Origin: Afipia sp.
GTDB taxonomy: Bacteria > Pseudomonadota > Alphaproteobacteria > Rhizobiales > Xanthobacteraceae
Reading direction: 5' to 3'
Length of the DNA stretch: 64,000 nt
Assembly (NCBI GenBank): GCA_024707075.1
Contig: JANQAK010000005.1
Location: forward strand, 101,362 to 165,361
Made by a program: the position numbers and the translations under genes. The notes beneath the pieces were generated by a model, which ran no database searches, was not told the DNA's origin, and was given only the letters and a program-made list of their open reading frames with translations. Shown piece by piece: positions 1 to 31,295 of this stretch (position 1 is its first letter; the number at the start of each line of letters is the position of its first letter).

Positions 1-1
1 A

Positions 2-9852: not shown

Positions 9853-9925
9853 GTGACAGCTCCGACGGTAACTTTGTGTAAATGACAGCCAAGCGCCTTG
9901 GCCCAACATATCTGCGTGCTACGTT

Positions 9926-11338: not shown

Positions 11339-11415
11339 CGTCCTCTCCTGGAAGGTGGCCTAAAAACTGGTCCGTTTGTCTACCGGGCTCCGCGTATAGC
11401 GGAGCCGACAATTTC

Positions 11416-13066: not shown

Positions 13067-13375
13067 AAAATTCTCCTGAAAATTAATTGCAAACTCTGGC
13101 GACGCGTGTCCGTAACAGAACCGGTCGATCGGAATAAAAATGCAATGATAGAAAGAGGGGTCAAAAACGTCGCGATTGAAACACTGACGTTAAAGATTTG
13201 CAATCAGCAGTTGCTGTCATAATTATGTGTCAGCCCCGCCATCCCGGAAGGTCGCAGCGGCTATTACTTCCAGCTCGCCTACGGCTTTTCGGAGCTTTCG
13301 GGCGGGGGTCTGGGGCTTGCCCCCAGCGGCGTGTATTCAACAGACGAATGACACCACGCTTTCGTCAGAGACTGA

Positions 13376-14300: not shown

Positions 14301-14345
14301 ATGGATTGCGTGCACCGCTCGTGCAAAGGTATGGCCCTATTCATT

Positions 14346-14837
14346 ATGTCTCGACGCATGTCCAAGAGCGTTTGTTTTACGGTTAGGTGTTGGAAGGTCG
14401 CCGGGTGGTCAACGCTGGCACTGATGACGTTTTCTATGCTGGAGTTGCCGAGGCTTCGCGCGCAGAACGCTTCTAAGGTCAGCACTCTCACTTTCTCAAT
14501 CTGCAATAAGACGTCGAAAACGATAAGTGCAATTATTGTGCGTCGCTCGACATTTGACGAAAACTGGTGGTTGGAGGGCTGGTACGCTGCCGCTCCCAAT
14601 TCGTGCAAAGACGTTAGTGGAATTCCCCGTGGCTATTTCTATTATTATGTGACCCAGGAAGGCACGAATACTATTTGGTCAGGTGATGCGCGCCGCGTGT
14701 GCGTCGATACTAGGGTAGTGGAGAGAGTTATCTTCCCGAAGGAGCAATGTTTAACGGGAGAGACGAATGCGGGATTTGCTGAGGCTTTTAGTCTAAGTGA
14801 TAAGATCGAGTTGCCCTTCATGGATAAGGTCCGCTAG
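14346..14837 (+). CDS. Exported DUF1036-like protein
   Basis: FSICNKT...EGWYAAAPNSC...YYY...WSG...CV pattern. Confidence 0.7.
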   Translation: MSRRMSKSVCFTVRCWKVAGWSTLALMTFSMLELPRLRAQNASKVSTLTFSICNKTSKTISAIIVRRSTFDENWWLEGWYAAAPNSCKDVSGIPRGYFYYYVTQEGTNTIWSGDARRVCVDTRVVERVIFPKEQCLTGETNAGFAEAFSLSDKIELPFMDKVR

Positions 14838-15520
14838 CGGAGATTAATCCAGGCTGGCGGACTTCCGCGACCGAATGGCTCGATGTCTAATTGAGGAGGA
14901 GGAGCAAAGCTTCCGTCGGCACATACCCCGAGGTCACCTTTGACGTTGTAGTCCACGCATGGGTCTCCAAGTACCGAGCTGTCAGCTCTGTCGAGTTTGC
15001 GCTGTTCATCACGTGCAGCCTGACGGGCTAAAATGTAATCGTAACTGGCCAGAACGCCGCCCACTAACAACGCGGTGCCTCCTATGCCCAAAGCCAGCGG
15101 ACACCCCAAACCTGCCGTGCCAACACAGATCTCGGCTGCCGCCCCCATGCCGATCTCAGCTACGCCCCATCCAATAAATGCGCGGCCGCGTGCGTGGGTT
15201 TTATCTTGGCCCTGCCCGCGCCCCTCATCGTAGGTATCGTAGGCATTCCATGCGGCAAAGGCTCCGCCCGTTACTTTTAATGGTATTGTCGGAAGCTTAT
15301 TTCGCTCGGCCAATATTGTTAACGCTGAGATCGATGCTTCGGCAGTTAGTCGGGTCTCCTTTACTGCCATTTCTGATGGAGAGGCGTCGAGAATCTGTAT
15401 CTGACTTTTTTGAGCAGCAGCCTTTACAACGAAGGGCCAGGGTGATCCATCAAAGCCACAGAAGAAAGTCGTGGAGGCGACCGTCGCCGCCCTCAGTATT
15501 CGAAATGAGCAGCTCATCAA
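14834..15520 (-). CDS. Hypothetical protein with Gly-rich hydrophobic hairpin
   Basis: GWGVAEIGMGAAAEICVGTAGLGCPLALGIGGTALLVGGVLA. Confidence 0.6.
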   Translation of the reverse strand: MMSCSFRILRAATVASTTFFCGFDGSPWPFVVKAAAQKSQIQILDASPSEMAVKETRLTAEASISALTILAERNKLPTIPLKVTGGAFAAWNAYDTYDEGRGQGQDKTHARGRAFIGWGVAEIGMGAAAEICVGTAGLGCPLALGIGGTALLVGGVLASYDYILARQAARDEQRKLDRADSSVLGDPCVDYNVKGDLGVCADGSFAPPPQLDIEPFGRGSPPAWINLR

Positions 15521-15548
15521 GATTCCTCACAAGTATGTTCTGCAAAAA

Positions 15549-16373
15549 TCAATAAGAAAAGAAGATGCGCGCTTTCTTTACTTGGCATGAGGGAGCCGGT
15601 GTCGTTTCCAGGAAAGCGAATTCTCTGCCCAACTGATCGTCTTGCAAAATGACGTTATCGACGTTCGAAATACGCACCATTACCCTTGGGATCATGCGCT
15701 CGGCGACCTTCTTTCCCCCGGTAAAGCGGAGTGCGAAAGTTTCGCTTCCTCGATAAGCATCAATGTTTTCCACGCAAGTGGATGACAAATAGTCGTTGAC
15801 AGATTGAACGTAAGCCATCAAAGCCGTCGTGACTATCTTGGCGGCTTTTTCATCTTGCTGTAATGCCAAAATATCTCGGCGCATGCTGTCCTCATCTTTT
15901 TCCAAGAGGATGGCGGTATCTCTTTGTAATTTTGGCCGCTGCCTAAACGTACGCAAGGCAAAGTCCGAATCTTCGGAAATGCGACCTTTTCCCACCACAT
16001 AATTAAGCGCATCTCCATGGGCCAGGTAAACTACTTCCGGGCCACTCTGCTTGTTGGTGCCAATTATCGTAAAGAGATCTATTAGCGTTGAGTAAAGGAC
16101 AATGAACCGTCCGCTAGGGGACTTTTCCACACTTGAGGTGGAGATAATCATCTCTGCTAGGGCGTCGAATCCCATCGCTTGCTTGGCAGTCAGTTCTGAT
16201 GGGGAGACGCCATTCAAGCGCTCGATAGCTTCTGTAATTTTTTGTCTTAGCGCAGGCTGATTTGGAAGTTGACGCAAGATCAGGACTTCGGGAGGTCTGG
16301 TCTCCGCTTCTGCAGCTAGATTTAAAATTACGCTGGTAGTCAGAACCGCCAATAACGAAAGCCATTTCAACAT
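15549..16373 (-). CDS. Exported hypothetical protein (274 aa)
   Basis: Signal peptide MLKWLSLLAVLTTSVILNLAAEA. Confidence 0.7.
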   Translation of the reverse strand: MLKWLSLLAVLTTSVILNLAAEAETRPPEVLILRQLPNQPALRQKITEAIERLNGVSPSELTAKQAMGFDALAEMIISTSSVEKSPSGRFIVLYSTLIDLFTIIGTNKQSGPEVVYLAHGDALNYVVGKGRISEDSDFALRTFRQRPKLQRDTAILLEKDEDSMRRDILALQQDEKAAKIVTTALMAYVQSVNDYLSSTCVENIDAYRGSETFALRFTGGKKVAERMIPRVMVRISNVDNVILQDDQLGREFAFLETTPAPSCQVKKARIFFSY

Positions 16374-16669
16374 TTGGTTCAGCGCCTTTTTTGTTACTAT
16401 GCATGCTAGCTCGCGGCCTGTCCGATTAGAAGTGGTGCTTTGCTGAAGTTTGATGAATTAAGAGGCGCAAGAATACGGTTCGGACAATTGTTAGGCGCTC
16501 TAGCGAGGAACGCAAACGCGAGGGGCCGGACACACCTTTGGCCGGTTTGTCAGACCAACCACATACTTTGTCCGACGCTAAAATCGGTACTCTGAAGGGT
16601 TTCTGCTCGAGGCGTCTTGCGGCGAAATTACCGCGTATCTGAGATCGAAGAAGTCTCGATTAGGTAATT

Positions 16670-16694
16670 GCGCACTTATACATCGCTACGCGAC
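16670..16694 (-). mobile_element. oriT1 (MobQ/IncQ-pTi type)
   Basis: GCGCACTTATACATCGCTACGCGAC; minus strand has the TAAGTGCG^C nick core; TCGC/GCGA repeat; just upstream of relaxase. Confidence 0.75.
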
Positions 16695-16766
16695 AATAGG
16701 TGCACGGCCGACACAGGTGTGTCTAATGGCCGTAAGGTGTCGCAAGCGACAAGGGCAGGGAGGGCG

Positions 16767-17948
16767 ATGGCGTCTTATCATTTCTCGGCACAGGCGGTGA
16801 AACGCTCGGAAGGGCGTTCGGTCGTTGCCATGGCGGCCTATCGTGCTGGCGAGAAACTGAGAGATGAGCGTCGTGGGGTTGATGCTGATTACAGCAGGCG
16901 GCGTGGGGTTGTTCACGCCGAGATCATAGCGCCGGAAGGAAGCGCCGAATGGCTGCTTGACCGCGAGCAATTGTGGAACAGGGTTGAGAAGAGTGAAATC
17001 CGACGCGACGCACAGTTGGCGCGGGAGATCAACATGGCCTTGCCATGTGAGTTGACTGACGAGCAACGGCTTGCCCTGGTTCGGGAGTTTGTTGCTGCTG
17101 AGTTCGTATCGCTGGGGATGGTCGCGGATTTCGCCATCCACGAACCGGTTGCCGAGAAGGGGGACGATCCCCGGAATTTTCATGCGCATGTGCTGTTGAC
17201 CCTGCGCCAGGCGGGCGGCGGTGGGCTCCGCCGCGTAAAGACGCGGGAATGGAATAGCGACGCCATGCTGGCCAAATGGCGGGCCGCCTGGGCCGAACAC
17301 CAGAACAGGGTTCTGCGCGAACGCGGGCTCGCGGTGAAGGTCGATCATCGCAGTCTTGAGGTGCAGAGAGCGGAGGCCGTGGCCCGGCGCGAGCCAGGGC
17401 TGGCCGCTATGCTCGACAGGTTTGCGGAGATTCATGTGGGGCCGAAGGCCCGGAAGGCGGGCTTTGCCGGGACGCCGCAAAGTCGAGAGCGTGAGGCTGG
17501 GCCATTTCGTATACGGGAGATGCCATCTCCGGCCAGGCGCGTGGTTCGCTATCCCGAGTTGGACCAGGGCAGTCGTGGTTATGCGAACATCAAGAGGCTT
17601 AGCTCCAACGGGGAGCGGTTCGCGGCCATGGCGGCGAAGATCGAACGGCAAGCCGAGCGTATGCGCCGTAGGCAGGCTTATTACGAGTCGCTGATTGCGA
17701 AAGAGCGTTCGACCACCCAAGACCGGCAAAAATCATTTAAAGGGCGTCCTGAGCGGTATGAGCACGCCTTGAAGCGGTGCGAGCAGGTGGCGTTCTGGCT
17801 GGCGGAGCTGGATAAGCTTTTTTTCGCAGTATTGGGCATTCGCGAGAGCCAGCTTATGCGGCGCACCGTTTGGCCGAACCGGATGAGGCGGTGGCGGCGT
17901 CTTGATCTTGAGCCGACGCGGGGTGGTGGCCGGAATCGCGCGCGTTGA
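16767..17948 (+). CDS. MobA/MobL (MobQ) relaxase 1
   Basis: MASYHFSAQAVKRSEGRSVVAMAAYR, REINMALPCEL, FAIHEP...NFHAHVLLT, VDHRSL. Confidence 0.9.
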   Translation: MASYHFSAQAVKRSEGRSVVAMAAYRAGEKLRDERRGVDADYSRRRGVVHAEIIAPEGSAEWLLDREQLWNRVEKSEIRRDAQLAREINMALPCELTDEQRLALVREFVAAEFVSLGMVADFAIHEPVAEKGDDPRNFHAHVLLTLRQAGGGGLRRVKTREWNSDAMLAKWRAAWAEHQNRVLRERGLAVKVDHRSLEVQRAEAVARREPGLAAMLDRFAEIHVGPKARKAGFAGTPQSREREAGPFRIREMPSPARRVVRYPELDQGSRGYANIKRLSSNGERFAAMAAKIERQAERMRRRQAYYESLIAKERSTTQDRQKSFKGRPERYEHALKRCEQVAFWLAELDKLFFAVLGIRESQLMRRTVWPNRMRRWRRLDLEPTRGGGRNRAR

Positions 17949-19430
17949 ACTGCAGAGGCCAGCGGTCGTACTTGCCCCACCAGCGGAAATGACGCCACGA
18001 ACGGTAGTTGATTTTGGTGGCAAGCACTGGATACCGCAGCACGTCGCTGCGGTAGAATGCCAGCGCGCGGTTGCCGGGCAGGCGCATCACTTCGGAAGGA
18101 TCAAGAAGCCAGCGGCCGGTCTCCGCTATGCCGAGGGAATACTGCTGTCGCACGAAGTCGGTATTGGCCTGCGAGGTGCCCTGGTTATGGGCAAGGGAGG
18201 TGGTCTGGCCGATCATCTCCGAGATGAACCTGGCTGCTTCGAGGTCGGCGACGTTGAAGAAGACCTTGCAGGTCGCGTTGGCCAGGAATGAACCCGCGCG
18301 TTTGTAAAGCGCGCGAAGCTGGTTCAGGTCCTGAAAGATGAGCATGGGCGTGCAGTAGGCGCGCAAGTAACCGACGCCGCGTTCGAGTGGCTCAAGCGTG
18401 CCGAGCGCGGCGGCTTCGTCGAGCAGGAGCAGGACTTTGTGTTTTGGTCGCGGGCGGTTCTTGGCGCGCGTGAGTGCGTTGAGCACGCAGCCGACCATCA
18501 CGCGGAGGAATCCCGCGTAGATGGAGAGTTTCTCCTCATCGACAACGAGGTACAGCGTCTTGGTCTGGTCAACGAGTGCCGAGAGTTTGAACGTGGAGTG
18601 TGAGGAGATCGTGCCGGCAGGGCTGCCGGCCGACCATACCCGCGTAGCTTTCTCGGTGTTGGACATGACGCTGCGGAATTCCTCGCTGCCCTCCATGGCC
18701 AGGAAGCTGCCCGCCAGTTCGGCGGCTGCGCGCGGGCCATCGCGCGAGATCTGGAGCAGGAGCTCCTTGAACGATTCCGGTGGGAGCGTGGAAAGTGACC
18801 GCAGTTGAGCCAGCGTGCGGCGTTCGAGGTCCAGGCGGACCACGTGCAGGATCAGGCATGTGACCATGCCCTCCGCCTTGCTGTCCCAATGGCTTTCCTT
18901 GCCATCCGGAACGATCATGAGCTTGGCGAGCGCTTCGGCGTCGTCTTTTTCGTGGATGGTATCCACGCGAACCATGTCGAGCGGGTTGAAGCGGTCGGAA
19001 CTATGCGGATCGGTGGTGTCGAGGATACGCACCGGCCCGAACTCGCGGCGGCGACGATGGGTGATCGCACGGTTCTCGCCCTTGATGTCGGTACAGACAA
19101 CGGAGCCGCGATACTCAAGCAGGTTCGGGATGACGATGCCGACGCCTTTGCCCGCGCCCATTGGCGCGAACACGGTCACCATGCCGTCCTTGTTGAAGCG
19201 CAAAAAGAACGGCCTGTGCGGCCGATGATGGGACCATTGCCTCTCCGCACGCCTGACCAGAGCAACTCCCATGGGTTGGCGAAGCGGGCAGAGCCCAAGG
19301 CTCCCCCTGGGTTAAAGCCGCCCCAGCGATACAGCGTGCGCAACAGTGACGCTGTTCTTAGTGTGAGCCAGAAGGCGGTCCGTGCGAGCAACCAAGAGAG
19401 TTTCAACAGAAGCAAGAACGCACGCACCAT
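17854..19430 (-). CDS. VirD4/TraG-type coupling protein 1 (frameshift ~19210)
   Basis: N-terminal TM + GSARFA in ORF 19176-19445; APMGAGKG, TDIKGE, FNPLD, LLLDEAA in 17854-19272. Confidence 0.85.
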
Positions 19431-19625
19431 GCGCGAGTCTTGCACAGGGCGGGGTGAGGCTTAAGCGAATTGCAGACAGCGGGTGGCATTGTTGGGAAAG
19501 CCGGAGGGAAGGGCAGACGTAAGACATCGGAGGGCCGTACCCGCCGCCTGGCCGTCAAGGGTTATGCGAGCGGCTGCGCCGCCCTTGACTGCGGCGGCAG
19601 ATGGCGGCTGTTTGCTGGCCAGCGG

Positions 19626-21368
19626 CTAAGGCCGCACTCTGGACGCGTCCGAAGGCTCAACGGATTGGGCGCGGTGGAAGAATTGCTTGTGCAGCACCAG
19701 CGGTGTTTCGTTCGCGCCGAGCGTGAAGATGCTGTCCCGATGCGCTGGCCCCATGATGTCGGCCGTTTCGATGACCGGACGCTTGGTGCTTTCAAGTACG
19801 CTGTCGGCTTTGCCGAACGCCCGCGCGATGCGGTCCGCGATGGCGGACGGCGGGTTCATGTACATACGCACGTCGCAGTTTTCCATCATGCCGTCGCCGA
19901 CGCCGGGATAGGCGTGGACGATCTGCTCGGCATATTGCGCGAACATCCAGAGCTTGATGCCATAGGAGCGGCCGACCTCCAGTGCTTCGCGAACGGGCTC
20001 CATCCGGCCAAGTCGCGGCAGTTCGTCGAGCATGAACAGGATCGGTGCGGCGGGTTTGGAGTCGCGGCGCATCAACCGGCGTACATGCTGGCCGATGATG
20101 ACGCGCAGGACCGGGGCGTAGGTCTCGATCGCGTTGGGAGGAATGCAGAGATAGAGTGTGGGGCAGGGCGCGGTCGCCAAATCCTCGGGATGCCAATCGG
20201 AGTGCCCGGTGACACGCTCAAGCTTGGGCCCTTCCCATACTTGCAAATGCTGCGAGGCACCGCTGAGCACCCCTTCAAACTGCCTGGGGGCGGCTTTTGC
20301 CATTTGGCCAAAGCGCGCGGCCACGCGCTTCATCGCGGAGGGTAGCGGGCAATCAACATGGCTGACGGTCGCGAACATGTCAGCGAGACCAATGGTTGCG
20401 ACCAGGTCGAGCACTTGCGACATCTTTCTCGCGTCCGCTTCGTTCACGACTACATAGGCAATGATAAGGGTCAGCAGGTCCTTGCCCTGGCTTTCCCAGG
20501 TCGGATCGTGCTGGCTGCGCGTCACGACCAGGAGTTCGGCGAGGAATCGGGCGCTCTCCCACAACTCGTCGGGATGATCATCAACGAAGGCGAGTGGATT
20601 GTAGCTGGCGCTGTGTTCAGGCTCGACGGGGTTGAAGCGGATCACCGGTCCGATGTTCGCGCTGCGCCATGCCGCCGTGTGTTCGTGGCACTCGCCCTTG
20701 ATGTCGAGCACGATCGCGGGTCCACGGTACGACGCCAGCGCAGGCAATACGTGGCATTGGGTCTTGCCCTTGCCGGACGGCGCGATGGTGAGAAGCGAGG
20801 CTTCGCCGACGTAATGGACGGTCTTGCCGTTGGCGGGATTTTGGCCAAGTGGAAGCGCGTAAGGGCCGGGTTCTTCCGAGAACAGCGCTGAGTCCAGTCC
20901 TGTGGGTTTCGGCGGGGTAACGTGGCGGGCCAGCCAGGCCCGCAAGACCGGCGGAGAATCCGCCTGCTGATGTTCGCGGATTTTTTCGCTGATGAGGTTG
21001 GCGTAGGCCGACAGGTTCTTGGGGACGAAGTGTTCGGAGCGGTCGCTGATGAGACCATGCATGACCGCGTGGTCATGACCCGGATAGGTCACGCCGGAAA
21101 ACGCTGCTTTCCCGTCGGCGTAGGTGGCCGACGCGATGAGCTGTTCGGCCGTCGCGCGGTCAATCGAGCCGATACCCGCCAACAGCATGGTGAACTGGAA
21201 AACAAACTTCTCGTACTCGGAAAACTGATACGCGGGGCGGGCGAAGACGTAGGAGCCTTCGTTCAGCTTCCAGCCCGCCTTGACGATGTCGGTCGGCTCC
21301 TGAAACGTCTTCTCGGCAATCACGAGAAAACGCTGCAACGGCTCGTCGAAGGGATGAGGGCTGTCCAT
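19626..21368 (-). CDS. VirD4/TraG-type coupling protein 2 with soluble N-terminal extension
   Basis: APSGKGKT, LDIKGE, YNPL, FMLDELP, GRSYGIKLW. Confidence 0.85.
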   Translation of the reverse strand: MDSPHPFDEPLQRFLVIAEKTFQEPTDIVKAGWKLNEGSYVFARPAYQFSEYEKFVFQFTMLLAGIGSIDRATAEQLIASATYADGKAAFSGVTYPGHDHAVMHGLISDRSEHFVPKNLSAYANLISEKIREHQQADSPPVLRAWLARHVTPPKPTGLDSALFSEEPGPYALPLGQNPANGKTVHYVGEASLLTIAPSGKGKTQCHVLPALASYRGPAIVLDIKGECHEHTAAWRSANIGPVIRFNPVEPEHSASYNPLAFVDDHPDELWESARFLAELLVVTRSQHDPTWESQGKDLLTLIIAYVVVNEADARKMSQVLDLVATIGLADMFATVSHVDCPLPSAMKRVAARFGQMAKAAPRQFEGVLSGASQHLQVWEGPKLERVTGHSDWHPEDLATAPCPTLYLCIPPNAIETYAPVLRVIIGQHVRRLMRRDSKPAAPILFMLDELPRLGRMEPVREALEVGRSYGIKLWMFAQYAEQIVHAYPGVGDGMMENCDVRMYMNPPSAIADRIARAFGKADSVLESTKRPVIETADIMGPAHRDSIFTLGANETPLVLHKQFFHRAQSVEPSDASRVRP

Positions 21369-21373
21369 CGGCG

Positions 21374-22150
21374 TCAGAAGCGATCCATCTGGCGCTGCAC
21401 CACGTGCGCGATAGCCAGCTTCTTCTCGTTGATGAGACGAATGATCTCGGAGCCGCTGGATTGGAAATACCGGGGGCCGTCAAATTGGACGATGTAGACC
21501 TCTCCGGTTTTGAAATTCCATCCGACGATGTGACAGTGGTAAAGGCCGCGCGGGACCTGGACGGTCTGCTTGTCCTGGGTTTCGACCATGGCGGCACCAT
21601 CGGAGATTTCCGCGACGAATTTGGCGGGGAGTACCGGGTCAACCGGCTCAAAGTATTCGATGGCGCTAAGCTGGGGCTCCGAGCCATCGCGGCCAAACGC
21701 GACGGTGAATTCGAAACCGTCCTCTGAGCTGTAATCGCCGTCCTCGAACGGCAGGCCTGCGGGGTTGAGCTGGGTATCGCCCATCAAGGCGACAAAGTCG
21801 GCGAACAGGTGTTCCTCATCCTCCATGTTGCTCATCTGAAGGGACACCGCGCCGTCTTGGTGGGCAAACCCGAAGCGGGGATAATCATAGGTCTGGGCGT
21901 GCCAGCTCACCGACCAGAACTTGCCGGGGTCCACCCGGAGCTCACGAAAACCGTCCCAGGCGCGGATGAAGCCCGCAGGTGAGGTAGTGCGAAAGCGGCG
22001 TGCGCCTTCATCAAGGTATAGCGAACTTCCGGCTTCGACCTTCACGAGGGAAAAGTCGATCCTGGCGGGACTGCCATCGCGGATGTTGAGGGGCTGTAAC
22101 CACGGCAAAACAATTTCAGCCGCCTCCTGGGCGACAATTTCCAAAGCCAT
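21374..22150 (-). CDS. Hypothetical protein, likely co-transcribed with coupling protein 2 (start uncertain)
   Basis: 5-nt gap to the T4CP2 ATG; acidic, aromatic-rich, no recognisable motif. Confidence 0.6.
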   Translation of the reverse strand: MALEIVAQEAAEIVLPWLQPLNIRDGSPARIDFSLVKVEAGSSLYLDEGARRFRTTSPAGFIRAWDGFRELRVDPGKFWSVSWHAQTYDYPRFGFAHQDGAVSLQMSNMEDEEHLFADFVALMGDTQLNPAGLPFEDGDYSSEDGFEFTVAFGRDGSEPQLSAIEYFEPVDPVLPAKFVAEISDGAAMVETQDKQTVQVPRGLYHCHIVGWNFKTGEVYIVQFDGPRYFQSSGSEIIRLINEKKLAIAHVVQRQMDRF

Positions 22151-22359
22151 CGGGGAAAATCCAAAAAGTAAAACCGGGTTGCCAGCATCGAATATCCCGG
22201 CCCGAAACGTCAAGGCTTCCCGCACGACGACCCGGCAGTCAGGAGCTTCGCCCAGACATTCGGCGGGCGGCCGGGCCGCCATCGGACCTGCGTCCCGCTG
22301 GCGTGCCACGGCCGTTCTTGATTCCTGGCGGGATTTGGAGATAGCCTGGCCGGGTCGTT

Positions 22360-22390
22360 AGGGCGCACTTATGGGTTTGCAGGCAAACCC
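22360..22390 (-). mobile_element. oriT2 (RSF1010-like)
   Basis: AGGGCGCACTTA (minus strand TAAGTGCG^CCCT) plus perfect inverted repeat GGGTTTGC-AG-GCAAACCC. Confidence 0.9.
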
Positions 22391-22411
22391 GCGCCCTTCG
22401 GGAGTGCTCGT

Positions 22412-23335
22412 GTGGCGATCTACAGCCTTCACCACAGCCCCGTTGGCAAATCGACCCAGGCGCAGGCTTACACCGCCGCCGCGCATATCAAATACATTAC
22501 CAGGGCGAGAGCATTGAGCCGGGTGGCGGGTGCCCGCATGCCGACCGCTCCCGAAGACGCTATGCGATTCTTGCGGGGAGCCGAAGACACGGACCGGAAG
22601 AATGCGCGGGTGATCGATAAGGTCATGCTGGCCTTGCCGCGCGAGTTGAACGCCAGGCAGCGGGTCGAGCTGGTTCGGGCATATGCCGAGGCGATCACGC
22701 AGGGGCGCGCCTCCTGGCTCGCAGCCTTCCATGAGAAGGGCAAGGATGCCCAGAATCCGCATTGCCATCTGGTCATCCGCGACCGGGATTTTGAAAGCGG
22801 CAAGCGCGTGTTCGGCATGAGCGAAAACGGTTCGACCGAGAAACTGCGGGTGCTGTGGCAGGAATGTGCCAATGCGGCTCTGGTGCAGGCCGACAAGGAG
22901 GCCAGGATCGATCACCGCACGCTTGAGGCGCAGGGCATCGCCCGTGCACCAACCATCCATGAAGGCGTTCGCGGCCGCCGGATGCATCGCGAACGGCGGA
23001 AGGTCTCCTCACGCAAGCGCACGCGGCGTAACGCCGTGTCGGCCAGAAGCCGCAGCCGCGCGGTCGATTACCCGGCGATCGACAAGGGGCGTTCGCGTTG
23101 CGCCTACAATGAGGTTTTGCGGGCGCGCGCCAACGAGACGGCTTCGGATTATTGGCAGGCGCTTGATGCGGACGCGCAGCACAGGGAGATTGAACAGCTC
23201 CGCGCGATTCATAAACCTTCCCCCACGACCGCGGAGGGGCAGCGCGCGGTATTCCGCACGTACATGCGGAAAGCCAAGCCCGCCACTGCAACAAAGCATA
23301 CACGTAGCCGCGACGATGAGCACGAGCCTGAGTAA
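22412..23335 (+). CDS. MobA/MobL (MobQ) relaxase 2
   Basis: MAIYSL, KVMLALPREL, AAFHE...NPHCHLVIRDRD, IDHRTLEAQGI; GGAG RBS. Confidence 0.9.
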   Translation: MAIYSLHHSPVGKSTQAQAYTAAAHIKYITRARALSRVAGARMPTAPEDAMRFLRGAEDTDRKNARVIDKVMLALPRELNARQRVELVRAYAEAITQGRASWLAAFHEKGKDAQNPHCHLVIRDRDFESGKRVFGMSENGSTEKLRVLWQECANAALVQADKEARIDHRTLEAQGIARAPTIHEGVRGRRMHRERRKVSSRKRTRRNAVSARSRSRAVDYPAIDKGRSRCAYNEVLRARANETASDYWQALDADAQHREIEQLRAIHKPSPTTAEGQRAVFRTYMRKAKPATATKHTRSRDDEHEPE

Positions 23336-23703
23336 TGCTTGTCAACCGGGCCAGCTTTACCCATCATGAACTCATGGCTGATGCCTTGCCCACGCTGGAA
23401 GAGAACGTCGATTGGCGGCAGAAGATCGTGGAAACGCTTGCGGCGAAGCACGAGGCCATAGCGGAAATCGACCGCATGGAAGCCATCATTGCAGAAGCCC
23501 AGGTGGAGATAGATGCGATCCGCGAGTACATGCAGCTCAATCCAGATCCCGACACTGAATTATACGGCTTCGACTGGGCAACCCGCCTGATCGAGGATCA
23601 AAAGTTCTATAATGATCGCATTGCGCTCATGCGCCGTTGCATCGAAACGTTTGATAGGTACGTCGCTGCCGTTCAACCATTGGTGGGATCAAATGACGGA
23701 TGA
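23335..23703 (+). CDS. Hypothetical coiled-coil protein
   Basis: Start overlaps the relaxase stop; helical heptad pattern. Confidence 0.55.
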   Translation: MLVNRASFTHHELMADALPTLEENVDWRQKIVETLAAKHEAIAEIDRMEAIIAEAQVEIDAIREYMQLNPDPDTELYGFDWATRLIEDQKFYNDRIALMRRCIETFDRYVAAVQPLVGSNDG

Positions 23704-24106
23704 GGAAGATGCAACGGCCATCAAGATATTCCTGAAGAGCGGCAAGCCCGCAGATGCGCTTGATCTGTTGGCCATAGAGCGCCGTATCGCGGTTTTGGAA
23801 AGGAAAAGGACCGAGCTGGAGTCCAAGTCGCGGCTTATCCCCGGTCGCAGTGCGCACCTTCGACAGGTAAGGGAGGAGATTGCCGCGCTTGGCTGGGCAG
23901 AAATGTCAGCCAAGGAGCAAGTGCGCGCCAATCGTTACCAGTCCGAAATCCATCAAAAAGAAAAGGAGCGGGCGGTATCCGCCTCCAAACTTGCTTCACA
24001 AGAGCGGGAGGCCTTTCAGGCTTTTGTGGCTGCCCGCAAGGCCGAGGCTTCGTCGGACAAGAATGCAATATCAAGAGAATCCGAGTGCGGGAATGAGCCA
24101 GATTGA
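23693..24106 (+). CDS. Hypothetical coiled-coil protein
   Basis: Overlaps upstream gene; charged helical sequence. Confidence 0.55.
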   Translation: MTDEEDATAIKIFLKSGKPADALDLLAIERRIAVLERKRTELESKSRLIPGRSAHLRQVREEIAALGWAEMSAKEQVRANRYQSEIHQKEKERAVSASKLASQEREAFQAFVAARKAEASSDKNAISRESECGNEPD

Positions 24107-24115
24107 ACACTCTCT

Positions 24116-25258
24116 CTAATTGAGTGCCCGGGGCTTAAGCTCCAGTATTCCGCTTGAGAATGTAACGTTGAACCGGGCGAGGAAGGTCATTCCCAGCAGG
24201 CCATCGATCTGGTCGCCGAAGGCAGTTTCTCTGCCGACCGATATGGCCACCGGGACGCTGGTAGCACTTGTTTGGCCGACCTGGATAAGTTGGGCATAGC
24301 CCGGCGCGGATTGCACCGTGCCTCCGACCACTTGGAACGTCATCAGGTTCTGTTCGTCGGGGAGTATGCGCGCGCGGGCTGCCAGCCCGGGTGTGATCGA
24401 AACCATGGAGGCACCGGTATCAACAATCATGCGTGCCTTGACGCCGTTAATCGTTACATCGACGATATTGTTCTGTGTAATCCAGACTTTGTCGCTGCCG
24501 GATGCGTAGCTCGCGCGGCAGTTGCCGTCGTTGGCATATTCCGTGATCATTTTTGTGAGCTGTGGCGTCTGCCGCTTTGTGACATTGTACGAAATGTACA
24601 TCTCAAGCGGCGTGATCGCGTCGCAGTATCGTCCGATTGCCGCATACATGCGTGAGATGCGATAGAACTCGCTTACCGAAACGTTCGATAGATCGGTGAA
24701 GAGCTGGAGAGCGCTGACATAGTCGCTGAGTGCGCCTCGTGGGTTCTTCATTCCTTCATATGCCGTCCCACGCAGATAGCGGTAACGGCTTCGCGCCTGG
24801 TCGAGTTTGATCATCTCGTTGGCGACGGCGACGGCGCTGCTGAAATCATTGATCCGGGTCAGCGCGGCATATGCTTCCTCAAGAAGCTGGCTGTTGTGTC
24901 CGCAGCGCTCACCGAATTTACGTGCGGCGGTCGCTCCATCCCGGGGATACCCAACGCTCACCAGCAGTTTGACGAGCGGCAATATGGCTTCCCTATCGCA
25001 CGGCTCACGCTGGAGTTGGCCAAGAAATTTCGTGCCAGAGGCGCTCTTTTCAACGTCTGCGGTGGATGCGGGCGATAGGCCAAGCTGTTCGTAAACCGAT
25101 TTGAAATCAGGTCGCGAGTTGGCGATGCTCAGCGGGTAAGTTTGGCTAAAATAGATGTAAGCACCCACCGCAATCGCAATAAGCGTGGAGAAGCCTACGG
25201 CAATTGGGACGAAGTAACCTGAGCGTTCCGTGTAGGGCGGTGCAATTCGTTCGGGCAT
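24116..25258 (-). CDS. Membrane-anchored TPR + retropepsin-like aspartic protease
   Basis: N-terminal TM, TPR-like helices, MIVDTGAS, GLLGMTFL. Confidence 0.85.
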   Translation of the reverse strand: MPERIAPPYTERSGYFVPIAVGFSTLIAIAVGAYIYFSQTYPLSIANSRPDFKSVYEQLGLSPASTADVEKSASGTKFLGQLQREPCDREAILPLVKLLVSVGYPRDGATAARKFGERCGHNSQLLEEAYAALTRINDFSSAVAVANEMIKLDQARSRYRYLRGTAYEGMKNPRGALSDYVSALQLFTDLSNVSVSEFYRISRMYAAIGRYCDAITPLEMYISYNVTKRQTPQLTKMITEYANDGNCRASYASGSDKVWITQNNIVDVTINGVKARMIVDTGASMVSITPGLAARARILPDEQNLMTFQVVGGTVQSAPGYAQLIQVGQTSATSVPVAISVGRETAFGDQIDGLLGMTFLARFNVTFSSGILELKPRALN

Positions 25259-25512
25259 GGCAATACCATTGCGACGCCCGGCCTGTGATTACGGCGTCAG
25301 CATTCACATGCCGTTTTAGCGAATATCCTGATTTACGCATGAGAGCTGTAAGCGCAGATTGAAAGCAAACTAACCAATGAGAAGCAGTATTGATTGAATT
25401 GCCTAAGTTCGCGAAATGATTCAACTATCTCGGATAGCGACGGCCTCGATGCGTCTTCGGCGCTTAGACTTGCAAAAATCAGAACATTTGCAACGTTCGT
25501 TGAACGATAGCC

Positions 25513-25775
25513 ATGACCATTCTGGGATACGCTCGTGTTAGCACTGCAACCCAAGAGCTCGATATCCAGCTTGCTCAGTTAAAGCAGGCTGGTTGTTCGA
25601 AGCTATTTTTCGAAAAAGAGAGCGGCATTAAGGATGACCGTCGCGCTCTTAGAGATATGTTGCGCATAATCGAGCCTGGAGACGTTGTTGTCGTTCCTGC
25701 ACTGGATCGATTGACACGAGGTGGTGCTTTCAAAACGCTTCTCATCCTCGACGAAATCACATCGCGCGGTGCGAC
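25513..25775 (+). pseudogene. Truncated serine recombinase (resolvase) N-terminus
   Basis: GYARVST, EKESG, PGDVVVVPALDRLTR; similarity stops at ~25775. Confidence 0.85.
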
Positions 25776-26036
25776 TTGCCGGTCAAACTGCTTTTGCAGC
25801 GTAGGCGCTATTGCTTGATACGCTTCAAGATGTTGGGCAAGCATGCTTGCTGTCTGTGTGGCTTTCGCCACATCCAGCGCCTTATAGGTATCTAAGACTG
25901 AAGATGCAGCTCCTTGAAGTTTCAGGGCCTGCTCGGCGTTGCTGAATATGCCTGCAGCCCTTAAATTCTGCATTTGCTCTGCTACCAAGCGGTGGTTCGA
26001 AAATAGCGGGTCCATAAGCGGATCACGATGCTTCAT
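25776..26036 (-). pseudogene. Probable 5' remnant of an unknown gene joined tail-to-tail to the resolvase remnant
   Basis: Helical 85-aa N-terminus, then the ORF runs antisense through the resolvase. Confidence 0.35.
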
Positions 26037-26279
26037 GTGCGACTTTGCTTTCAGGAAGAATCTGTTAGGAGTTGGTCGCTATCCTATCCTGATCGGCCCC
26101 TATCAGCGATGTATGCAATTTAAATGGCGATCGTCGGGCAATTTTGCAGCCGCTAATCCTAATTTCTTCAATGATTTAGCGGTGTGCGTAGACGCAGGGG
26201 ACATTGCCGCTCGATTTCCGCAGAAATCCGGGGCTTTGAACTAGCACGTTAGTCCTTTGCGGCTATAAGAATAAATTCC

Positions 26280-26313
26280 TCGACCGAAATCCAACCCTGA
26301 CTTATAACCGCGC
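26280..26313 (+). promoter_or_regulatory. Putative sigma70 promoter of the tRNA gene
   Basis: TCGACC-N17-TATAAC then GC-rich discriminator CGCGC, 11 nt before the tRNA. Confidence 0.5.
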
Positions 26314-26324
26314 TGTCCCCCAGT

Positions 26325-26635
26325 GCGGGTGTGGCGAAATTGGTAGACGCAACGGACTTAAACGATCGCTTGATTGCTCGGAGGGAAATCTCCGATGCAG
26401 AACTGCTCAAAGTCGGGGAAACCTTTTAAATGGCAATCCCGAGCCAAGCCCCAACAAGGTTGGGGAAGGTGTAGAGACTAGACGGGCAGCACCTAAGGCA
26501 GTTGAGTTATCTTGCTAGGGTGAAGGGATAGTCCAGACCACAAACGCATTTAAAACGCGGCGGCGAAAGCCGTAGAGGGTAAGAAAATCCGTAGGGCAAT
26601 TGCCTGTCCCGGTTCGAGTCCGGGCGCCCGCACCA
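26325..26635 (+). tRNA. trnL: tRNA-Leu(UAA), intron-containing (exons 26325-26359 and 26584-26635; 87 nt mature)
   Basis: Spliced form: acceptor GCGGGTG/CGCCCGC, anticodon arm ACGGA-CTTAAAA-TCCGT, long variable arm, CCCGG-TTCGAGT-CCGGG, encoded CCA. Confidence 0.95.
26360..26583 (+). ncRNA. Group I intron (trnL/IC3-like, 224 nt, no ORF)
   Basis: Inserted U^AA, ends in G; core elements AAAGTCGGGGAAACC, GGCAATCCCGAGCCAAGC, AGGTGTAGAGACTAGACGG, GAAGGGATAGTCCA; hairpins TCGGAG/CTCCGA, CCCCAAC/GTTGGGG, GCGGC-GAAA-GCCGT. Confidence 0.92.
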
Positions 26636-26654
26636 AATTACAGATTGCAAGAAA

Positions 26655-27671
26655 ATGACCGAAGAGAGGAAAGACAAGCGCCCGATTGACCGCATTCGCG
26701 AGTCGGCAATGAGCATGAGCGTCGGTACGCCCGATGACCAAACACCCATTACGGAGATGATTGGGCTTGGCGGTATTCTCTACATTATAAAGGAGGGCGG
26801 GGTTTATGCGACGCAACTTGCCGATAAAATAGACCCACAGCGAACCAACGCCAGCGTTCCGAATGTTCAGCAGAGGCTCCTTTCGATTGGCTCTAGCTCG
26901 GAATTGGTGGGAAAAACCCTGTTGACGGCCAGAGAACTGCTCAACCCAACATTCCTTCCTGCCGGTTTCGACAAGGAGGCTGGATTAACCTCGGCCCTCT
27001 CTGGCCTCAAGGATCTTGCGGCAATGCAGGATATGGCCGTTAATATCGAGGAAGCACAAAAGAAGGCCGAGGTTCAAGATTATCGTCAGCGCGATCGCTC
27101 GGTGTTGTTGCCATCCGTGGGGGATATTACCGCGCAGACCAAAGCTTTTGCCCAGAAAGCCGACTATGTTCTCCAGTCATTGTTGGGAATAGCCAAGCTG
27201 TTTTATGGAGAGAAGGCAGGGAAGCGCTGGTTCAGATCTCTCGCAGATCTGGCTACGCAACATTACGGTGTTGAAGATGATTTTTCCAAGTTCATGCAGC
27301 AAGCTCTACCGGTGCTGCAGTTCGTAAGGAATGTGCGAAATTGCGTGGAGCACCCAAAGCCAGACCAGTACGTGGTTGCGAGTGACTTTACTTTGAGCCC
27401 GGCTCTTGAACTCGTGCCTCCGACAATCGAGGTTGTTCATCCGAAAACACCGCAGCCGCGCATTCAAGCTTCTGTTTTTATGAGAGATGTCACGGCACAG
27501 CTGGCAGACATCTTTGAGATTATGCTGGCATTTCTTAGTGGAAAGAACGCCCAGCCATTCGCCGGGTTTCCGATCGGCATTATCGTTCTCTTGCCAGAAC
27601 AACGCCGCTCGCCGCATGTGCGCTATTCCTACGGAACTATCATGGGCGACCAAATAAGTCCGATAGGATAG
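26655..27671 (+). CDS. Hypothetical protein with HEPN-like R-x4-H motif
   Basis: VRNVRNCVEHP after a helical region. Confidence 0.55.
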   Translation: MTEERKDKRPIDRIRESAMSMSVGTPDDQTPITEMIGLGGILYIIKEGGVYATQLADKIDPQRTNASVPNVQQRLLSIGSSSELVGKTLLTARELLNPTFLPAGFDKEAGLTSALSGLKDLAAMQDMAVNIEEAQKKAEVQDYRQRDRSVLLPSVGDITAQTKAFAQKADYVLQSLLGIAKLFYGEKAGKRWFRSLADLATQHYGVEDDFSKFMQQALPVLQFVRNVRNCVEHPKPDQYVVASDFTLSPALELVPPTIEVVHPKTPQPRIQASVFMRDVTAQLADIFEIMLAFLSGKNAQPFAGFPIGIIVLLPEQRRSPHVRYSYGTIMGDQISPIG

Positions 27672-27675
27672 AGGC

Positions 27676-29114
27676 GTGACCACCGTGGATAATCCGCCAA
27701 AGCAGTATCTGGGACATTTTTCGATCCAGGGACGGCGGCTTCCTGGTCAAGTTACTCTCGCGGGAAGGGACTCAAAGCTCGAAGTGTTCTCCGATCACCA
27801 TATTCATCTTCCCAAGGAGAAAATGCAGACAATTCGTGGTGTGGCCCGCAGCGGAGAGAAGGTTACGATCTGCAACGCGATCGGTGCAGAGATGAGCGGG
27901 AGCTCCTTTTATTACGGCACTACAAAGCATTTCATTTCGCTATTCCCACACCATGTTGCAATTGGTCCGCGCCATATCGATGCTGAAAGAAAGATAGTTT
28001 CTCGGATTTCATTTACGACCACGGGAGCAATTAATCTCTTCTATGATCACGGCGCATTCGGCAGTTCGTCCAGCAAGAACATTCGCAGATTGATGCCCGA
28101 TTGGGCCAAAAAAGATCGGCGGAAAATCACTTACAATAGAATCTATTATTATGCGGATCGGGGTCCAATCGTTTCTGCCAAGAGCAAGGATTATGAGATT
28201 GTCGTGTTTAATGGGGGTACGTTCAGCTCCCCTTCGCCAAAGGGAATCAACGTAAAGAACGAGGTCCGCATCGCACTAAACTTCAAGAAAGCTGTATCTC
28301 TTGAAGATGCGCTACACGCTGCGCATGAGTTTCGCATTCTCTGTGAATTCTTAAGCCATGCAAAACAGTGTATTCAAAATGTCCGCATCCAACATAAGAA
28401 TTCAGAACAACAAGAGGGAGAGATCACTCTCCACTCTTCCTACGAGAATCGGGTTCTGGCCAAGAGGCCGACTTTCGCGACAACCTGATCTCAGGTGGGT
28501 TCCACAGGGGTGAGTTCAAGCAAGTTATAGAGCGTTGGTTAGCAAAGCCAACTCATGCAAGCGCGCGGCAGCGTGTCATCCAAAATATGCGCGAAGAAAT
28601 CTATACGATTGATCGGCTTGTTGGCGCGGCTAACGCATTTGATATTTTGCCAGAGGTCAATGTTGCAAAGCCGCTGCCTGCTCGCGCGATGAAAATCCTC
28701 AGCAAGCTGAGGAAGGATGCGAAGAACCTACCCGCGCCTTATAATGAGCAGATTCTAAATAGCTTAGGCCGAGTAAAGGCGCAGACTCTTCGTAAGAAGA
28801 TTGAGGCCCATTTCTCTTCGCTTCCGCATCCTCTAAAACAGCGTCTTCCAGACATGTTGCTTGTCATCGAGCATTGTGTTCGGGCACGCAATTATTTCGT
28901 TCACGGTACGCCACCCAAGATATCGGTGGACGCCACTCATCAGCAGATTTTCTTTCTAACCGACACACTCGAGTTTATTTTTGTCATCTCAGAACTCGCG
29001 AAATGCGGCTGGAAGTATGATCGTTGGATAAAAGAACCTGGGTGGGGACGCTATCGGCAATATTTACAATCCTACGAGCTCTCGCTCCGTGCTTTTAAGG
29101 AGCTTATCCCGTAA
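27676..29114 (+). CDS. ApeA-like HEPN protein (frameshift ~28450)
   Basis: Beta-rich N-terminus; one added base joins both ORFs into 480 codons; DRLVGAANAFDILP and RARNYFVHG (R-x4-H). Confidence 0.7.
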
Positions 29115-29128
29115 CTTTGTCATTAGAA

Positions 29129-29985
29129 CTAGCCTGCATTAAGCGTGCGGGTCGGCTGTAGAGGCCACGTAGCTAAAGCCTCTCTTACCTGCTGAGCATT
29201 GGCAAACAGATGTGGATTTGCAATGAATTGCGTAACAGATGCAAATTCACCAGGCTGGTAAAATCTTTCGCGCACGAATCCAAGAAAGTGCACTCTTTCT
29301 CGGGCGTGGGGCGCACCTCTCATGGGGTTATTCAAGTCAAATACCCCTGCAATGAGGCGTCCCGCCCAATAGCGTCGTAGAAAAGCATCGGGAAGCCATG
29401 CTCCCCCTAATCCTACGTGAATTCGATCATACTCATCTCCCCCATGCAGGAATGTTCGAAAATCGATTAATAACGCATGTAGCGCCCCGTTCGGCCGGGG
29501 AAATTTATACGGCAAGCCGTCTTTCTCGCATTTCTGACATATCCTTTGTACAGCTTTGATAGTTTCGCCCTCTTCGGATCGCGTAGGGTCTTCGGCATTG
29601 GTTGTGAGAATGCGTTGAGACCAAACAATTCCGTCTTCATCAGCATGCGCGGTCGTCGCGGCGCGCGCAGCTGCGGTTTCTTCGAGGCGCATCAGCTCGA
29701 CACGCCAATCTCTACCGGCGGAATTGAAGCCAAAGTCTAGATTGGATTGTCCTTCTCCTTGAATTTCATAAGCCGGAGCAATTCCGGCATTATGCAATTC
29801 ATGAGCAAACCGTAATTCTAGCAGGCGAGATTTATTCTCTCTGCTAATGCCACCGTTTTCTTCAACTCCACGAACAAGGGAGCCGCCCATTGATGAGGAC
29901 GCAGCACATTTAGCAGCGGAGCGGTCGCATCTGCTTCTTCTCCGCTAAGATAATCCCAATCAATTGCGTGGACTCCATTTGGCAT
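29129..29985 (-). CDS. Hypothetical protein, possible restriction-endonuclease-like fold (frameshift ~29885)
   Basis: LLELRFAHEL...LDFGF...WRVE; N-terminus MPNGVHAIDW in the adjacent frame; start 10 nt after the Fic stop. Confidence 0.5.
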
Positions 29986-29995
29986 GGGAATATCG

Positions 29996-30579
29996 CTAGC
30001 CCCGTCTTTCAATTATTAGCTCTAGAATCAACTTAACTAGAGGCTTCTCATTCCCACCAAAGCTGGCAATCACCGCCTGCATAATAGCCTCGGGCTTCAT
30101 CTTCTTCAGGTCGATAGGATGCCCGGCTTTCTCGGCCAGTAAAATGTAGAAGCTCAGCTGGCTACGGCCGTTGCCTTCCCGGAAGGGGTGGATGGCGTTG
30201 AGGTCGGCCAGGAAATGCGCCGCTGCCTCTGAGAATTTCTGCGGCGTGAGTCCGTTAAAGTACTTTGCCTCCACCAATTGCTTGAACAGCTTCTTTGCCT
30301 CGCGATCGATGCTCTCCGGATAGCAGAACATGCTGCCGCCCTTGGCAATGCGCACCGTGCGGGGCTTGCCAGCCCAAGTGTAGACGTCCTGAAACAGGTG
30401 TTTATGGATGGCGCAATAGTGAGAGTAGGTCAGCTTCCCGGCGGGAGGGGCTCGGTCGAACGCTGGAATGAGATTTCAGCCTCGAACTTATCGAGATCAG
30501 CTTGTTTCCTGAGTCCGAGCTTATTTTTGAGAACAGACGTTCCTGGGTAGCAGTACGGGTCATCAATGGCCTCGTACAT
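29996..30579 (-). CDS. Fic-domain toxin (FicT-like; frameshift ~30445)
   Basis: DPYCYPGTSVLKNKLG, IHKHLFQDVYTWAG, HPFREGNGRSQL. Confidence 0.9.
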
Positions 30580-30588
30580 GCTCAATCA

Positions 30589-30792
30589 TCAAGCTTTCTT
30601 GTAAGTTTTGATAATCTCTTTGCGACGTTGAGCAGGAGACAATCCCTCACGATCGAAACGATCGCTACGCTTTTTCATTTCAGCGGTAAGCTTGATACCT
30701 TCAACCGCACTGATCTGCGTAAAGCGTTCCCTGCCAATCACGAACTTGGCGGAAATGCGCTTATTCGCGCCGGATTTCTTAAGAGGAGCCAT
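30589..30792 (-). CDS. Putative FicA/VbhA-like antitoxin (67 aa)
   Basis: Small gene directly upstream of Fic, with ISAVEGI helix. Confidence 0.65.
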   Translation of the reverse strand: MAPLKKSGANKRISAKFVIGRERFTQISAVEGIKLTAEMKKRSDRFDREGLSPAQRRKEIIKTYKKA

Positions 30793-31237
30793 ATCCAGAT
30801 AATACCAGAATCTGCAAGAATTTCCAGTTAAGAGGTAACGGAGCTTGAAGTCGGTGTGGCACTAAAGCTTGACCTAGATAGGTCCTCGACTCATATGGAT
30901 ACATCGCTCCTTCGAGCGGTTATGTACGAAAAGGACCGCAGTAACGGCCCCTTTTGTTTAGCAGGCCAAGCCCTCAAGACTCTGTTAGAGAAGTCCGGCT
31001 AGATTCAGGATGAGCTTCGGCATTGCTTCGCCTTCGCTGCGACAGTAACGACACTCAGACCCAGTTGGGTGCGTAGTCAAGGCCCGGTGCCCACCGCCAG
31101 CCCCGTTGTATGATGTTCAGCACATTCGGGAGGCAAAAAAGAGCAGAAATCGTCATTTTCTAGCATCGATTTTAGCACGCTGAGTTTTTAATATGAAAAT
31201 TCATCAATGAAATCAAATAGTTTAAGTAGACCAGTTA

Positions 31238-31295
31238 GGACTTAAAATCCCTCGATGGCAACGTCGTGCGGGTTCGATTCCCGCCGTCCGCACCA
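31238..31295 (+). mobile_element. attR-like site: 3' half of tRNA-Leu(UAA)
   Basis: GGACTTAAAATCC, variable arm CGATG-GCAA-CGTCG, GCGGG-TTCGATT-CCCGC, CCA; no D-arm or 5' acceptor upstream; AT-rich flank with paired TAGCA repeats (31161, 31173). Confidence 0.85.

Follow-up and report, generated by a model that had tools for sequence, protein, structure and literature searches.

A mobilisable island of an alphaproteobacterium probably splits the native tRNA-Leu(UAA) gene and carries intron-bearing replacements

Background

Why does a tRNA-Leu(UAA) gene with a group I intron inside it lie on a mobile island, and from which gene does its host obtain this tRNA? The locus that raises these questions is found in a 64-kb stretch of an Afipia sp. 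genome, C4:101362-165361, hereafter called the window; positions given without a contig name refer to it. The genome comprises 7 contigs and 5.3 Mb, with a completeness of 99.7%. A previous, sequence-only reading of the window had dwelt on the intron. Our main finding concerns the gene that harbors it: this gene, designated copy B, is very probably one of two replacement tRNA-Leu(UAA) genes on an integrative mobilisable island of about 36 kb that split the native gene.

Comparisons were made with a class sample of 401 alphaproteobacterial species from 308 genera, evenly drawn, and with a genus sample of 48 congeneric species. The host had been taken for an alphaproteobacterium, which it is, and one of the congeneric genomes is CP078014.1, 'Bradyrhizobiaceae bacterium AGun1'.

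Results

The native gene is split around the island

Most species of the genus have an intron-free tRNA-Leu(UAA) gene, intact in 37 of the 48 species and with exons that differ from those of the island copies. In the genome studied here, this genus-typical gene is present as two separated halves, one at each end of the island:

C4:96426-96466, native tRNA-Leu(UAA) 5' half (nucleotides 1-41), 4.9 kb left of the window
C4:96467-132598, island of about 36 kb; positions 1..31237 in the window, the left 4.9 kb outside it
C4:96603-97811, predicted tyrosine integrase of 402 aa, starting 137 nt past the left junction
C4:97917-98211, intron-bearing tRNA-Leu(UAA) copy A, intron of 206 nt
26325..26635, plus strand, intron-bearing tRNA-Leu(UAA) copy B, intron of 224 nt
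31238..31295, plus strand, displaced native tRNA-Leu(UAA) 3' half (nucleotides 30-87), 100% identical to the genus-typical gene and forming the right junction (attR) of the island
31238-31249, 12-bp core GGACTTAAAATC at attR

The two native halves share this core as a direct repeat of 12 bp. The 5' half runs on into non-tRNA sequence (GCAAATTAAG...), island DNA precedes the 3' half, and the native gene is rebuilt at neither junction, no tRNA being called at either. When the flanks are joined in silico, an intact 87-nt tRNA results, at a site collinear with the locus of a relative on both sides.

ARAGORN found no intron-free tRNA-Leu(UAA) gene in the whole genome. It has four intron-bearing ones: copies A and B listed above, and two on a second element located on contig C5:

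C5:56176-56470, minus strand, copy A of the second element, intron of 206 nt
C5:23474-23781, minus strand, copy B', intron of 222 nt

TTA codons occur in 184 of 436 long open reading frames (ORFs), UUA accounting for 0.9% of leucine codons; given the lack of an intron-free gene, at least one island copy would therefore have to be transcribed and spliced. Copies A (80% identical) were also considered as the native core gene, a candidate dropped once the two halves of the genus-typical intron-free tRNA had been located on either side of the island. The island thus appears to have destroyed the native tRNA-Leu(UAA) gene, with the intron-bearing genes as its likely replacements, a feature absent from the sequence-only reading.

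The mechanism that we propose starts from the integrase, a divergent tyrosine recombinase by prediction, which would recombine the short core GGACTTAAAATC (anticodon stem plus loop) with the native intron-free tRNA-Leu(UAA) gene. Such recombination would split the native gene and would not rebuild it. Decoding of UUA would then depend on the island-borne copies, of which one or more would be transcribed and spliced, and copy A, about 100 bp past the integrase gene and oriented like the native tRNA promoter, would be the likelier one to supply the tRNA. The predicted attP junction of the excised circle would read ...CCAGTTAGGACTTAAAATCGCAAATT....

The insert in copy B is a group I intron

The window gene is organized as follows:

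26325..26635, plus strand, island-borne tRNA-Leu(UAA) with a group I intron inside (ARAGORN with introns allowed: tRNA-Leu(taa)i(36,224))
26325..26359, plus strand, 5' exon of 35 nt, its last base being the wobble U34 (CTT)
26356..26376, plus strand, P1 helix, including the internal guide sequence (26370-26376)
26360..26583, plus strand, group I intron of 224 nt, IC3-like, with no ORF and an omega-G end (RF00028, column match and covariation)
26584..26635, plus strand, 3' exon of 52 nt, beginning AAAATCCGT, with the CCA encoded

In its default mode ARAGORN called no tRNA anywhere in the 64-kb window; the intron mode is required. With 26360-26583 deleted, copy B folds into a clean 87-nt cloverleaf that has a 5-bp anticodon stem, a long variable arm and CCA, the sole wobble of the acceptor stem being U6.G67. 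The claim that removal of this insert restores an 87-nt tRNA is thereby borne out. RF00028 (Intron_gpI, gathering score 50 bits) matches 26350-26555 with 56.2 bits (E 1.4e-11) over the full model length, and it is the sole Rfam family to exceed its gathering score within the window. The 5' exon ends at T26359 and the intron at the omega-G, G26583. P1 is formed by the pairs A26356-T26375, T26358-A26373, T26359.G26372 (the splice-site wobble), A26360-T26371 and A26361-T26370.

A reference of 96 homologous tRNA-Leu(UAA) introns, in which a column was called conserved at 93% identity or more, provided 131 conserved columns, and the copy B intron agrees with the consensus at 130 of them. An RNAalifold consensus structure from 47 homologous introns recovered P1, P2 and the core helices, with compensatory changes in 28 of 59 base pairs. 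Splice boundaries identical to those of the window intron are shared by about 200 homologous tRNA-Leu(UAA) introns, and these, together with the Rfam E value, rule out a chance or artefactual origin of the call. The feature is a genuine group I intron of IC3 type at the classical U34/A35 site of tRNA-Leu(UAA). The sequence-only reading had described just such an intron, placed after the anticodon U34, ending in G, devoid of an ORF and with P/Q/R/S-like core elements, and it was right on each count, the core being confirmed by the covariance model and the conserved columns. At 224 nt, the intron cannot accommodate a homing-endonuclease gene. Two minus-strand ORFs that overlap it were set aside as mechanical, unsupported calls. 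The intron is presumably active in GTP-dependent self-splicing, as suggested by a genome that has no other tRNA-Leu(UAA) gene.

The arrangement recurs with the integrase family

The integrase gene lies between the left junction and copy A. R240, K272, R336 and Y368 are invariant across its family. In a Foldseek comparison of an AlphaFold model of the protein (mean pLDDT 77.6), the top 50 PDB matches were all tyrosine recombinases, among them XerA (E 5.6e-8), Tn1549 Int, Cre and lambda Int. This fold comparison settled the identity of the modelled protein as a divergent tyrosine recombinase, which would be expected to catalyze the integration.

Members of the integrase family were found in 22 of the 401 alphaproteobacterial species and in 20 of the 308 genera. 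All nine integrase loci that adjoin a tRNA-Leu(UAA) gene (seven in other species, two in this genome) have an intron-bearing tRNA about 100 bp downstream, and seven or more loci of a pattern-selected set also carry the intron. The cassette of integrase and intron-bearing tRNA is present in 9 of the 38 intron-positive genomes of the class sample. The elements concerned form a widespread family, represented in about 2% of the sampled alphaproteobacterial species; further cases were found in Bradyrhizobium lablabi, a Phenylobacterium genome, a Micavibrio genome and Acidobacteriota.

Within the genus, six of the 48 species carry the intron (G000, G002, G005, G046, G049 and G063), each time within an island, so that it is not a core-genome allele, in line with the island-borne status first proposed. 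In all six, the native gene is split in the anticodon loop; the right junction holds an intron-free 3' half in 6/6, and in the five species where both halves are on one contig they lie 23-40 kb apart. The repeat cores of the relatives measure 7-9 bp. The intron-bearing tRNA gene is placed either 1.45 kb past the 5' half, with the integrase gene in between, or about 160 bp past it; in islands of this latter, G049/G046 type the integrase was not found. A FastTree tree of 126 introns, comprising 30 with a cyanobacterial-type core and 96 from Alphaproteobacteria, Acidobacteriota and the genus itself, places the four intron lineages of the genus, all island-borne, at four different positions, which points to separate acquisitions. 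Mantel tests of integrase against intron distances were not significant (r = -0.03 and 0.09), so that long-term co-inheritance of integrase and intron is not shown.

Other arrangements were seen in the same family. At locus L180, a split tRNA-Leu(CAA) 5' half is followed by the integrase gene and an intron-free tRNA-Leu(CAA), and at L166 the integrase gene is followed by an intron-free tRNA-Leu(UAG). At L177, the integrase gene stands between two different initiator-type tRNA-Met genes. At L151, a tRNA-Leu(CAA) 5' half is located upstream of the integrase gene and the downstream tRNA bears an intron. In genome G052, an islet of 1.1 kb (L022, G052:C102:49268-50468) splits the native tRNA-Leu(UAA) gene and carries an intron-free replacement on the opposite strand, with a second displaced 3' half 2 kb beyond the islet. 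The intron-bearing tRNAs of G002 and G063 (L003, L019) combine a native-like 5' exon (GCGGACG...) with an island-like 3' exon (...CGCCCGC) and have an A5.C68 acceptor mismatch; these hybrid exons may stem from gene conversion with the displaced native 5' half.

A sister element occupies a secondary site

The second element, about 38 kb long (C5:20240-57936, minus strand), encodes an integrase 97% identical to that of the C4 island. It resides inside a heavy-metal P-type ATPase gene, at a site that shares only GGGACTT with the core; the joined flanks of the ATPase gene yield a continuous ORF with the motifs GMDCASC, CPC and DKTGT.

A decayed third copy of the intron-bearing tRNA A was also noticed on this contig (C5:51452-51635, minus strand), consisting of the 3' part of the intron, with internal deletions, and the 3' exon. 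Copy A is 4.5 kb upstream of this remnant, with a type III-like restriction-modification cassette in between whose methylase is frameshifted.

Which copy supplies the tRNA

Several observations weigh against the proposal that the island splits the native gene by means of its integrase and replaces it with functional intron-bearing copies. The integrase has weak Pfam matches (PF00589 at 18.6 bits for a cut-off of 27.1, and also PF13102), and it showed no NCBIfam match and no PDB sequence match, either as a single sequence or as a 9-sequence profile. Neither an excised circle nor an empty site was observed in this strain. The remaining points concern the B-type copies. In copy B, T26374 replaces a 99%-conserved G of the internal guide sequence, which creates a C.U mismatch (C26357/T26374) near the splice-site wobble, and copy B is alone in this among the 96 homologues. 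Copy B' has four conserved-core deviations, a shortened D-loop and two anticodon-stem mismatches, and is decaying. In species G005, only 3' fragments of copy B are left. Finally, a sigma-70 consensus scan upstream of copy B returned no site, and the promoter-like element reported there by the sequence-only reading was not recovered.

The points on the B-type copies invite an alternative in which copy B is a duplicate, non-functional or in decay, and tRNA-Leu(UAA) comes from copy A alone; we regard it as a serious possibility with somewhat less than an even chance. The exons of copies A and B can be told apart in the variable arm and at positions 6, 16 and 27. The unique guide change, the decay of its sister in core, D-loop and anticodon stem, the remnants in G005 and the missing promoter match would all fit, as would the intron of copy A, which has no deviation from the conserved columns. 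Against it, the 130 other conserved positions of copy B are intact, its tRNA body is flawless, and its P1 keeps five of six pairs, including the U.G wobble. Copy B may thus be a redundant copy, weaker or less efficient owing to a P1 weakened by the G-to-T change. The full consensus of copy A and its position behind the integrase gene, in the orientation of the native promoter, make it the likelier main supplier.

Why an intron at the crossover site

With the replacement of the native gene as the preferred explanation, the position of the intron calls for comment, as it falls exactly within the crossover core. One possibility, which we hold to be rather unlikely, is that the replacement gene is shielded by it: with the 7-bp anticodon-loop overlap (CTT^AAAA) interrupted, the element's own integrase and those of sister elements would be unable to use this gene as an attachment site. 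The intron displaces the 3' half of the anticodon stem by more than 200 bp, and the RNA would still give a normal tRNA. All nine integrase loci adjoining tRNA-Leu(UAA), and the seven or more pattern-selected ones, carry the intron, and the right junctions of the six genus islands all hold intron-free 3' halves, as shielding would have it. The C5 element, moreover, took a poor secondary site and entered neither intron-bearing tRNA gene, though both contain GGACTTAAA; this argument assumes an order of arrival of the C4 and C5 elements. Less easily accommodated are the intron-free replacements of tRNA-Leu(CAA) (L180) and tRNA-Leu(UAG) (L166) in the same integrase family, the 1.1-kb islet of G052 with its intron-free replacement tRNA-Leu(UAA), and the lack of co-variation between integrase and intron distances except among close relatives (Mantel r = 0.09). 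Intron-bearing tRNA-Leu(UAA) genes that stand alone are, besides, common.

These last facts would fit an intron that is a passive passenger. It would have come with a whole tRNA-Leu(UAA) gene that an ancestral element took from a host with a native intron allele, and would have persisted only because bacteria rarely lose group I introns precisely; taken together, these two steps have a probability that we put close to even. In the class sample, at least 12 intron-bearing tRNA-Leu(UAA) genes stand alone, neither an integrase nor a half-tRNA being located within 2.5 kb of them. The integrase family also has members with intron-free replacement tRNAs, and integrase and intron show no deep co-divergence. 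A passenger would leave unaccounted for the perfect association of the intron with integrase loci that adjoin tRNA-Leu(UAA), their integrases being only 50-65% identical, as well as the exact coincidence of insertion point and crossover site and the four separate intron lineages of the genus, every one of them island-borne.

Shielding adds to the replacement of the native gene by the island and does not conflict with it; that explanation holds whether the intron shields or is a passenger. A further proposal, which we advance as doubtful, is that the elements of this integrase family serve a group I intron without endonuclease as a kind of homing system. The integrase would recognize the anticodon loop of the intron-free tRNA-Leu(UAA), destroy that allele and install an intron allele which, its crossover site being split, would be invisible both to the integrase and to its competitors.

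The intron by itself is ordinary

According to the sequence-only reading, introns of this kind have been reported only sporadically outside cyanobacteria and chloroplasts. Such rarity did not survive comparison. A group I intron is present in 38 of the 401 alphaproteobacterial species, in tRNA-Leu(UAA) in at least 21 and in tRNA-Arg(CCU) in three. A scan of the genome collection with a 23-nt core string of the window intron, GGTGTAGAGACTRGACGGGCRGC, matched at least 120 species, mostly Alphaproteobacteria (Bradyrhizobium, Sphingomonas, Caulobacter, Rhodobacter, Brevundimonas and others), and the matches listed also include Acidobacteriota and a few Gammaproteobacteria. About 87 tRNA-Leu(UAA) loci have the identical boundaries CTT/...G/AAAA (80 from the core-string scan and seven integrase-linked ones from the class sample), and about 10 core-string loci are tRNA-Arg(CCU). 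A 2020 survey of bacterial introns lists thousands of such introns (Williams, bioRxiv 10.1101/2020.01.27.920355). Group I introns in tRNA-Leu(UAA) are therefore common in Alphaproteobacteria, and the window intron is, by itself, ordinary.

A close tie to the cyanobacterial and plastid lineage had also been proposed, and the tree does not favor it. The 30 introns with a cyanobacterial-type core form a clade of their own with a support of 100, although the two sets were chosen by different core strings, which imposes part of the split by construction; the window intron falls in the proteobacterial and acidobacterial clade. The cyanobacterial-type comparators came from a metagenome scan with the core string of the Anabaena intron, on contigs without organism names, and a full-text literature search for that string found no paper.

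The window intron has much in common with the Leu.3Ug (IC3) introns of cyanobacteria, plastids and bacteria: the insertion site CTT/intron...g/AAAA, the U-1.G wobble, the omega-G, a size of about 200-250 nt, the absence of an ORF and the match to RF00028. It differs from the classical setting in lying on a mobile island and not in a native gene, and from the other homologues in the unique guide-sequence mismatch of this copy. Reinhold-Hurek and Shub reportedly described, in 1992, group I introns in tRNA-Arg(CCU) of Agrobacterium and tRNA-Ile(CAU) of Azoarcus. Like the window intron, these are small IC3 ribozymes in the anticodon loops of proteobacterial tRNAs, but they occupy another tRNA and another position of the loop, and we know of no description of them as island-borne replacement genes.

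Contents of the island

Parts of the island have a GC content of about 50-57%, for about 62% outside. The sequence-only reading had placed the gene on a mobilisable island, and the annotated relaxase and coupling proteins agree with this:

17854..19272, minus strand, type IV coupling protein 1, VirD4/TraG family (PF02534, 231 bits)
19626..21368, minus strand, type IV coupling protein 2 (PF02534, 171 bits)
22412..23335, plus strand, MobA/MobL relaxase (PF03389, 87 bits)
26655..29114, plus strand, three-gene module: a 338-aa unknown protein, an ApeA N-terminal-domain protein and an Apea-like HEPN protein (PF18862, PF18739)

Integrase, relaxase, two VirD4-type coupling proteins and att repeats are thus all found on the island. 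From the left, the order is the left junction, the integrase gene, copy A, an OLD/Gabija-like ATPase-nuclease and a broken UvrD-like helicase; then an Eco57I-type methylase with an XhoI-type endonuclease, a Tle1-like lipase, a further methylase, an AAA_21 ATPase and a PLD nuclease; then the two coupling proteins, the relaxase, an aspartyl protease and copy B; and finally the 338-aa protein with the ApeA/HEPN pair, minus-strand ORFs without a family match and the right junction. The scanned island ORFs include no phage structural genes, the annotated cargo consisting of OLD/Gabija-like, restriction-modification, ApeA/HEPN and PLD defense genes, the relaxase and the two coupling proteins; nor was a VirB/Trb match found among them, several having no family match.

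The two VirD4-type coupling genes are adjacent (17854-21368), and only the first is common to the C5 and G005 elements, with 86% identity. The UvrD-like helicase gene (C4:100260-101971, reaching from the window start to position 610), which adjoins that of the OLD/Gabija-like ATPase, is split into at least three ORFs, so that this OLD/Gabija-like defense pair looks inactivated. A dispersed repeat of about 105-150 nt, with 80-90% identity between copies, occurs in dozens of copies on contigs C1, C3, C4, C5 and C6 (in the window at 38849-38965, 46203-46322, 51398-51501 and 62738-62888, and at C4:82810-82915 and C4:85487-85599); it looks like a REP- or MITE-like family.

The ApeA/HEPN module, 2.5 kb long, is 95% identical between the C4 island (26635-29176) and the C5 element (C5:26401-23860). 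It abuts the B-type copy in both, which raises the question of a functional coupling between the two, in which the tRNA might, for example, resist a nuclease or act as a decoy within an anti-phage module. We consider this very improbable. The order is swapped: on C4 the module lies 20 nt downstream of copy B, and on C5 it lies 82 nt upstream of copy B'. Such a swap is more easily reconciled with a cassette that two tRNA copies formerly flanked than with an operon. No ApeA/HEPN neighbor is found beside copy A or beside the copies of other species, and no mechanism is known that would link a tRNA to these proteins.

Discussion

The closest known system to the island that splits and replaces a tRNA gene is, by analogy, the tRNA-dependent lysogeny of actinobacteriophages (Fionnbharth, Cluster L and Gaia; Guerrero-Bustamante and Hatfull, mBio 2024, PMC10865867). 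These phages use a core of about 10 bp, do not rebuild the tRNA gene and carry a tRNA whose isotype is the same, and their secondary sites in coding genes have only 5'-CTT in common with the core. The likeness extends to the short core within a tRNA, the gene left unrebuilt, the replacement isotype on the island and the secondary site, comparable to that of the C5 element. In contrast, the present element is a non-phage, mobilisable defense island of an alphaproteobacterium, and its presumed replacement tRNA has a group I intron at the crossover, introns not being mentioned there in the phage study. Islander-type islands (PMC4383910) likewise have a tyrosine integrase beside the junction, a tRNA target and direct repeats at their ends, but these bring the 3' part of the tRNA with them, so that the gene is regenerated at the junction, whereas here the native gene stays split. 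In our searches of the literature, no paper turned up in which an integrase is combined with a replacement tRNA that bears an intron.

For annotation, the consequence is that none of the four tRNA-Leu(UAA) genes is detected by tRNA finders in their default settings, so that this genome would seem to lack an essential isoacceptor. For the biology of integrative elements, a strategy of destroying a tRNA gene and bringing one's own, demonstrated experimentally only for actinobacteriophages (2024), would now be found on non-phage islands, extending to mobilisable islands across Alphaproteobacteria and beyond, and would be tied to a presumed self-splicing intron exactly at the recombination site. 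It also suggests a testable route for a long-standing puzzle, the patchy spread of endonuclease-free tRNA introns in bacteria, which may travel within an integrase cassette. If the homing-like role of this cassette proves true, it would explain both the sporadic spread and the retention of tRNA group I introns that have no homing endonucleases.

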